Below are positions 13,144-13,341 of a stretch of 64,000 nucleotides of DNA, piece by piece; position 1 is the first letter of the stretch; each line of letters starts with the position of its first letter. The DNA comes from Escherichia coli. GTDB taxonomy: Bacteria > Pseudomonadota > Gammaproteobacteria > Enterobacterales > Enterobacteriaceae. The notes under the pieces were generated by a model. It was not told where the DNA came from. It searched no databases and saw nothing but the letters and a program-made list of their open reading frames with translations. Position numbers and translations under genes: made by a program. The stretch lies in assembly GCF_003334355.1 (NCBI RefSeq), contig NZ_QOWP01000024.1. One strand, given 5' to 3'.

Positions 13144-13341
13144 TTTTGCACCTTTTAAGAGCCATTGAAAACAAGGAGTTGAGTCCTGATTGGTTTATCG
13201 TATGGCCGAGTCGTTTAATTATTACCCTGATGTTGAACAACTTTATTACTGTATTACTGTGATCAATGTACCAGGATGTATAGCTACTGCGGGATATGAT
13301 ATTTACACAATGTAGTCTGTTATATACCAGTAAGGGAAAAT

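Follow-up and report, generated by a model that had tools for sequence, protein, structure and literature searches.

The window, by which we mean the whole stretch of 64,000 nucleotides analysed here, carries between eamA (11480-12400) and marB a strain-variable E. coli chromosomal island. Within it, a spacer of 198 nt (13144-13341) separates a minus-strand regulator gene from a plus-strand PTS IIB gene. The regulator gene (12445-13143) is an ORF of 232 aa with a GTG start, which is a GntR/HutC-subfamily member and is annotated in RefSeq as 'GntR family transcriptional regulator'. According to the ORFs and the RefSeq annotation, the plus-strand genes of the island encode, in order, a PTS IIB, a IIC and a IIA component, a LamB-type porin and a 6-phospho-beta-glucosidase, with NCBIfam matches for IIB, IIA and the 6-phospho-beta-glucosidase. 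The first of them, of the PTS lactose/cellobiose family (13342-13653), is preceded by a Shine-Dalgarno sequence, AAGGGA, at 13332-13337. The region is found in 2552 of the 5426 complete E. coli genomes, hence in part of the species only. E. albertii also has the locus (regulator identity of 85%), as do members of Citrobacter, Salmonella, Enterobacter, Kluyvera, Raoultella, Cedecea, Erwinia and Yersinia.

Since this gene content and order match the published descriptions, the locus is the already described cryptic bgc operon, a five-gene beta-glucoside/cellobiose PTS operon whose promoter is reported to depend on the GntR-type positive regulator BgcR (PMC3585215). E. coli has four cryptic operons for beta-glucosides, of which bgc is one (PMC4488073). 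The spacer is accordingly the divergent control region, with bgcR on one side and bgcE-F-I-H-A on the other. The likeness extends from the divergent GntR-type regulator and the five genes (IIB, IIC, IIA, porin, phospho-beta-glucosidase) to the distribution, as bgc is strain-variable in E. coli, present in E. albertii, and has homologues in Citrobacter, Enterobacter and the Klebsiella group. The E. coli operon (bgcR; bgcE, F, I, H, A) was described by Neelakanta, Sankar & Schnetz in 2009 (Appl Environ Microbiol 75:2284), the published locus being that of strain i484 / CFT073. The abstract of that work reportedly states that the bgc promoter is CRP-dependent, and that a single-base promoter mutation, bgc*, gives BgcR-independent expression; it is also said to cover the distribution of bgc, including its presence in E. 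albertii.

No difference in organisation was detected between this locus and the bgc operon, but the operon here looks decayed. Two ORFs (13729-14418 and 14388-15089) take the place of a single IIC gene, bgcF (13729-15089). By comparison with strain AR_0061, which is otherwise 99.9% identical, the window is without one C near 14404, which amounts to a frameshift in IIC, and an A has been gained at 13762, a short way upstream of where IIC starts; bgcF in this strain is either a pseudogene or affected by a sequencing error. The porin gene bgcH (15484-17156) is also interrupted, its ORF ending at 16884 after 466 aa, where other genera have 557 aa, and the identical porin region of AR_0061 bears the RefSeq label 'frameshifted'. 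Together, the IIC frameshift and the porin interruption suggest that the operon is decaying in this lineage. Elsewhere, no IIC gene is called where expected in the Salmonella locus (1511-2979 of that locus), and the IIC and GH1 genes of the Erwinia locus (560-2819 of that locus) are each split into two calls. Thus, several lineages appear to be losing an intact operon independently of one another.

The original prediction, which had described the spacer as an AT-rich region of 198 bp between the GntR and PTS IIB genes, was right in its coordinates and composition (35.9% GC, versus 47.0% for the window). The regulatory role that it proposed for the spacer is upheld by a comparison of 13 orthologous regulator-operon spacers, namely that of E. 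coli and 12 others, with regulator identities from 86% down to 51%. The 12 come from E. albertii, a relative with 74% identity, C. koseri, Salmonella, Enterobacter, Superficieibacter, C. amalonaticus, Kluyvera, Raoultella, Cedecea, Erwinia and Yersinia, and were gathered by protein search and contig look-ups; a single-protein scan of genome contigs gave only two loci. The spacers are 193-200 nt long in 11 of the 13, E. coli included, and their layout is rigid: several conserved non-coding blocks lie at fixed spacing in all 13 loci, and the sequence between the blocks is not conserved. Two more distant homologues were uninformative, one with 47% identity and without the B3/B4 element described below, the other with 36% identity and a different gene arrangement. 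An Rfam scan of 12900-13700 gave no matches.

On the bgcR side, the translation start of the regulator (13141-13156, minus strand) combines a Shine-Dalgarno sequence (AAGGTG/AGAGGTG), 5 nt and GTG, and the corresponding CACTTTTGCACCTC is nearly invariant in the 13 orthologs. The next block, B2 (AAAACA-N4-GTT, 13168-13180), is by its conservation a candidate bgcR promoter or autoregulatory element; among the orthologs its ACA and (G)TT show little or no change, and a sample of 7 further E. coli alleles has the block unaltered. B2 and B3 are 43-44 nt apart in 12 of the 13 orthologs (Yersinia was not matched by the search pattern). B3 and B4 together form B3/B4 (13213-13238), a bipartite inverted repeat of the form GTTYN-N16-NGMAC, which reads GTTTA-N16-TGAAC in E. 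coli. The arms are exactly N16 apart in all 13 orthologs and invariant in the E. coli alleles sampled, whereas the intervening 16 nt are unconserved. An RNA hairpin formed by these arms was considered and rejected, since the changes between orthologs are one-sided and never compensatory, with measures below those of shuffled controls; the absence of covariation points to a DNA site and not to an RNA stem.

The most strongly conserved block of the spacer is TAACTGTGATC (around 13254-13264), in which GTGA is invariant in 13 of 13 orthologs. The longer motif GTGA[TC]C occurs once per ortholog, again in all 13, and lies in 12 of them 119-121 nt into the extracted spacer (extracts start 6 nt inside bgcR). 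This block belongs to a CRP-type site, TGTGATCAATGTACCA (13258-13273, centre 13265.5), whose left half, TGTGA, is perfect and whose right half, TACCA, is weak, giving TGTGA-N6-TACCA with two core mismatches. Compared with the 22-bp CRP consensus, TGTGA-N6-TCACA, three genera come closer in the right half, C. koseri, Salmonella and Enterobacter having TAACA with a single mismatch to TCACA. E. albertii, C. amalonaticus, Kluyvera, Raoultella and Yersinia have a poor right half, with 3-4 mismatches. Matches to the CRP consensus with 2 mismatches are no commoner than chance in the 64-kb window (24 observed versus 28.5 expected), so that the CRP assignment rests on conservation.

Downstream of this site, a TAnnnT motif lies exactly 36 nt beyond the G of GTGA in 13 of 13 orthologs. 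In the window it reads TATGAT (13295-13300, plus strand), is invariant in the E. coli alleles sampled, and is the predicted -10 hexamer of the bgcE promoter. The -35 position (13272-13277) reads CAGGAT, which is no -35 box, and a consensus sigma-70 scan found no canonical -35/-10 pair on the plus strand. On the minus strand the same scan gave only two matches, so that the bgcR promoter is neither located nor excluded. One of the two, a minus-strand ATAACA-16-TATCAT (13296-13323), overlaps the plus-strand -10 box; were it real, the bgcR leader would measure approximately 145 nt and span B2-B4 as well as the CRP site.

The asymmetric CRP site would thus take the place of the missing -35 box. It lies 29.5 bp upstream of TATGAT and, with a bgcE start predicted at about 13307, would be centred at -41.5, the class II position, this value following from a start taken 7 nt after the predicted -10 box. 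The bgcE promoter is therefore predicted, from sequence and its conservation, to be a class II CRP-dependent promoter devoid of a -35 box, with both its start and its occupancy by CRP inferred. This architecture suits a cryptic promoter that is weak, dependent on an activator and readily altered by mutation, and a class II CRP site combined with a specific activator is an ordinary promoter type. In class II CRP promoters such as galP1 the site lies about 41.5 bp upstream of the start and the -35 box is absent, as is predicted here. As in such promoters and in the CRP-dependent cryptic bgl promoter of E. coli, the core promoter is weak, and a single base change could activate it. The bgc promoter differs from galP1 and from bgl in that it additionally needs a HutC-type activator.

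The bgl operon is controlled by H-NS silencing and BglG antitermination. Of such control there is no evidence at the bgc spacer, where Rfam finds no match. Another likeness to bgl lies in insertion sequences upstream of the promoter, as some bgc strains have IS1 at that place. In E. coli EC21Z-137, IS1 sits in the control region at the equivalent of 13227-13235, exactly between the two arms of B3/B4, with CTGATGTTG as target duplication, and leaves TTGAAC, the CRP-type site and the -10 box intact beside bgcE. In other strains, IS1 lies inside bgcE or inside bgcR. The insertion in the control region recalls the IS-mediated activation of bgl, a likeness that we regard as putative only.

The place where BgcR acts is less easily read from the spacer. 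Homologues of BgcR match PF00392 and PF07702 (UTRA), that is, a GntR winged helix-turn-helix followed by a C-terminal UTRA domain, which is the HutC-subfamily architecture, and the closest solved structures are NagR/YvoA, YydK and DasR. The recognition helix, SRNTLRKA, is invariant among the 13 orthologs with compared spacers, and the operator of BgcR should consequently be conserved too. NagR contacts bases through Arg38, Arg48 and the wing residue Gly69 (PMC4333415), and it takes two arginines, Arg38 among them, to read the GG in a dre half-site. R39 and G60, which correspond to Arg48 and Gly69, are invariant in the BgcR orthologs, whereas residue 29, the equivalent of NagR Arg38 and FadR Arg35, is A, V, I, N, K or Q and never Arg in 15 aligned sequences. 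With this arginine missing, a non-canonical operator is plausible: the membership of BgcR in the HutC subfamily is independent of Arg38, but the operator to be expected depends on it. Among its relatives, BguR and GmuR resemble BgcR in that a divergent gene controls a similar cellobiose-type PTS operon. NagR/DasR, BguR and GmuR are all repressors, however, and BgcR is a reported activator. To our knowledge, activation by HutC-type regulators has been much less studied than repression, and we know of no work in which the BgcR operator was mapped.

Operators of the HutC subfamily include the dre sites of NagR/DasR, AAAAATGTCTAGACAAATTT for BguR and AAATGTATAGACATTT for GmuR. A partial, BguR/GmuR-like match in the spacer, ATGTATAGCTAC (13277-13288), was rejected, since E. 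coli alleles differ there (13277 T>C, 13280 A>G) and the orthologs do not conserve it. More generally, no contiguous palindrome of the HutC type (GT-N-TA-N-AC) is conserved across the 13 spacers, which leaves B2 and B3/B4 by elimination. BgcR would then most likely act from conserved elements upstream of the CRP site, chiefly from B3/B4, the best candidate for an activator site centred at about -81.5, and possibly from B2, near its own start. For B3/B4 as the site of BgcR, this reasoning from conservation carries us to a little short of an even chance.

Two features of this candidate deserve attention. One is its geometry, since its half-sites lie 21 bp apart, whereas the operators of NagR, DasR, BguR and GmuR are contiguous. 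Such spacing is incompatible with the juxtaposed domains of DNA-bound NagR, and would imply either two cooperating dimers or a splayed, effector-bound conformation, as has been described for NagR. That BgcR is a HutC activator reading TGAAC-type half-sites exactly 21 bp apart, upstream of a class II CRP site, is in this full form a distinctly unlikely proposal. The other feature concerns Cedecea neteri, where a spacer (4209-4564 of that locus) separates the bgcR stop from an operon for a ROK kinase and a GH1 glucosidase. This spacer holds six TGAAC/GTTCA pentamers versus 1.25 expected (P about 0.002, post hoc), two of which form a perfect GGTTCA-N14-TGAACC with the same spacing as in the element upstream of bgcE. 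This could possibly be a second target of BgcR, or a weak terminator, as a T-run follows it.

Alternatively, B3/B4, and B2 with it, could be bound by another host factor, nucleoid-associated or NagC/Mlc-like, or could be promoter elements of bgcR, in which case BgcR would bind elsewhere, at a site that conservation does not make recognisable. The half-site spacing of B3/B4 is indeed atypical for the HutC subfamily, and the bgcR promoter has not been located by the sigma-70 scan. In the nearest group of orthologs, moreover, the arms extend to CAnTTTT-N7-AAAAnTG, which loosely resembles the NagC/Mlc consensus and speaks for a host factor. This AAAA/TTTT extension is, however, not kept in the Kluyvera/Raoultella group. 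The chromosomal context of the bgc locus differs among genera, yet the B3/B4 element travels with bgcR, and in Cedecea a second B3/B4-like copy lies beside that gene. As for promoter elements, B3 and B4 were rejected on sequence inspection as -35/-10 elements of either promoter, their spacing fitting on neither strand. We consider a host factor or a promoter role unlikely, though not far-fetched, and retain B3/B4 as the candidate site of BgcR.

BgcR could instead occupy the TAACTGTGATC block, as its own operator or as a composite BgcR/CRP site, the dependence on CRP then being indirect or exerted elsewhere. The block is the best conserved of the spacer, the more distant orthologs keep only the left half well, and the CRP pattern alone is not significant in the window. 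Against this, conservation falls on A-n-TGTGA-n-C, the same positions as in the CRP consensus, the nearest relatives read TGTGA-N6-TAACA, and the distance to the -10 box is that of a class II promoter. The protein itself gives little guidance: with one of the two base-reading arginines of NagR kept in BgcR, TGTGA is neither predicted nor excluded. An operator of BgcR at this place appears improbable, and we keep the block as a CRP-type site.

In Escherichia, the operator could also be CTGTTATATACCAG (13317-13330), a GntR-like near-palindrome of 14 bp in the predicted 5' untranslated region of bgcE, which would imply repression or dual control. The E. coli alleles all share it and E. albertii has it almost unchanged, and by a hand count it matches 12 of 16 positions of the dre consensus of NagR/DasR. 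Beyond Escherichia, however, it is not conserved even though the recognition helix is invariant: the nearest group keeps only TTAATATA, an AT-rich remnant, and the more distant orthologs nothing. AT-rich palindromes are, besides, common in 5' leaders. Its position, at +11 to +24, suits repression, but BgcR is a reported activator (PMC3585215). We find this placement of the operator quite improbable, and B3/B4 remains our candidate for activation.

The tandem direct repeat that had drawn attention to the spacer finds its explanation in the CRP-type site. It is real and perfect (TATTACTG/ATTACTGT, period 8, 13244-13260, plus strand), with copies of ATTACTGT at 13245-13252 and 13253-13260, and is rare for a single region, as only 0.56% of dinucleotide shuffles of the 198 nt contain a perfect tandem duplication with a unit of at least 8. 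Across the 64-kb window, however, it is not beyond chance: three comparable duplications (unit of at least 7) start at 9929, 13244 and 38857, so that a scan of the whole window is expected to meet a few. It is also specific to certain alleles. The exact 46-nt stretch 13231-13276 is found in 245 of 2360 matching E. coli records, and the perfect repeat in only about 10% of the E. coli genomes that carry the region. Substitutions at 13246, 13247 or 13248 (which give ATCACTGT, AGTGCTGT or ATTGCTGT) break the first copy in every one of 7 further E. coli alleles sampled, while the second copy and every conserved block are unchanged. Among these alleles, no part of the spacer varies more in E. coli than the first copy; E. 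albertii reads CTTGCTGT at this position, and the other genera are unrelated there. The second copy would supply the conserved flank upstream of the CRP-type site and the TGT of its left half, and the first copy would be unconstrained sequence that matches it by chance in a minority allele. On these sequence comparisons, the tandem repeat is best described as a strain-specific coincidence, with no function as a repeat.

The original prediction had, as a speculation, read the two copies of ATTACTGT, along with the TGTACCAGG dyad, as half-sites of the operator of a HutC-type regulator, and had suggested a motif comparison across orthologous spacers, which spoke against it: the first copy is conserved in no other genus, and no GT-N-TA-N-AC palindrome is conserved. 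A function as half-sites is very improbable despite the perfection of the repeat, the small GTA-T-TAC palindrome at its junction and the recurrence of TACCAG at 13269 and 13325, given that the first copy is the most variable part of the spacer in E. coli and that 12 other genera fail to conserve it in the face of an invariant helix, that the second copy (CRP flank and TGTGA half) and TACCA follow the consensus and conservation pattern of CRP, and that the window has three similar tandem duplications. The 'tgtaccagg' dyad, present at 13267-13275, turns out to be the weak right half (TACCA) of the CRP-type site and not a HutC-type half-site. Another direct repeat, ATGTACCAG/ATATACCAG (13266 and 13322), was rejected as an element, not being co-conserved even in E. 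albertii.

Taken as a whole, the model that we consider probable is that the spacer is the bgc control region, with a class II CRP promoter, an incidental tandem repeat, and BgcR acting at the upstream elements. A description of the operon with its divergent regulator, and of how it depends on CRP and BgcR, dates from 2009; what is new is a control-region map, which is predicted, and a bipartite candidate site for BgcR. As stated, the finding matters little, the system being known and the repeat an accident of one allele. If BgcR did bind in a splayed conformation, the sugar would switch it onto DNA and not off, and widely spaced half-sites, if true, would make BgcR an instructive exception among HutC-type regulators.
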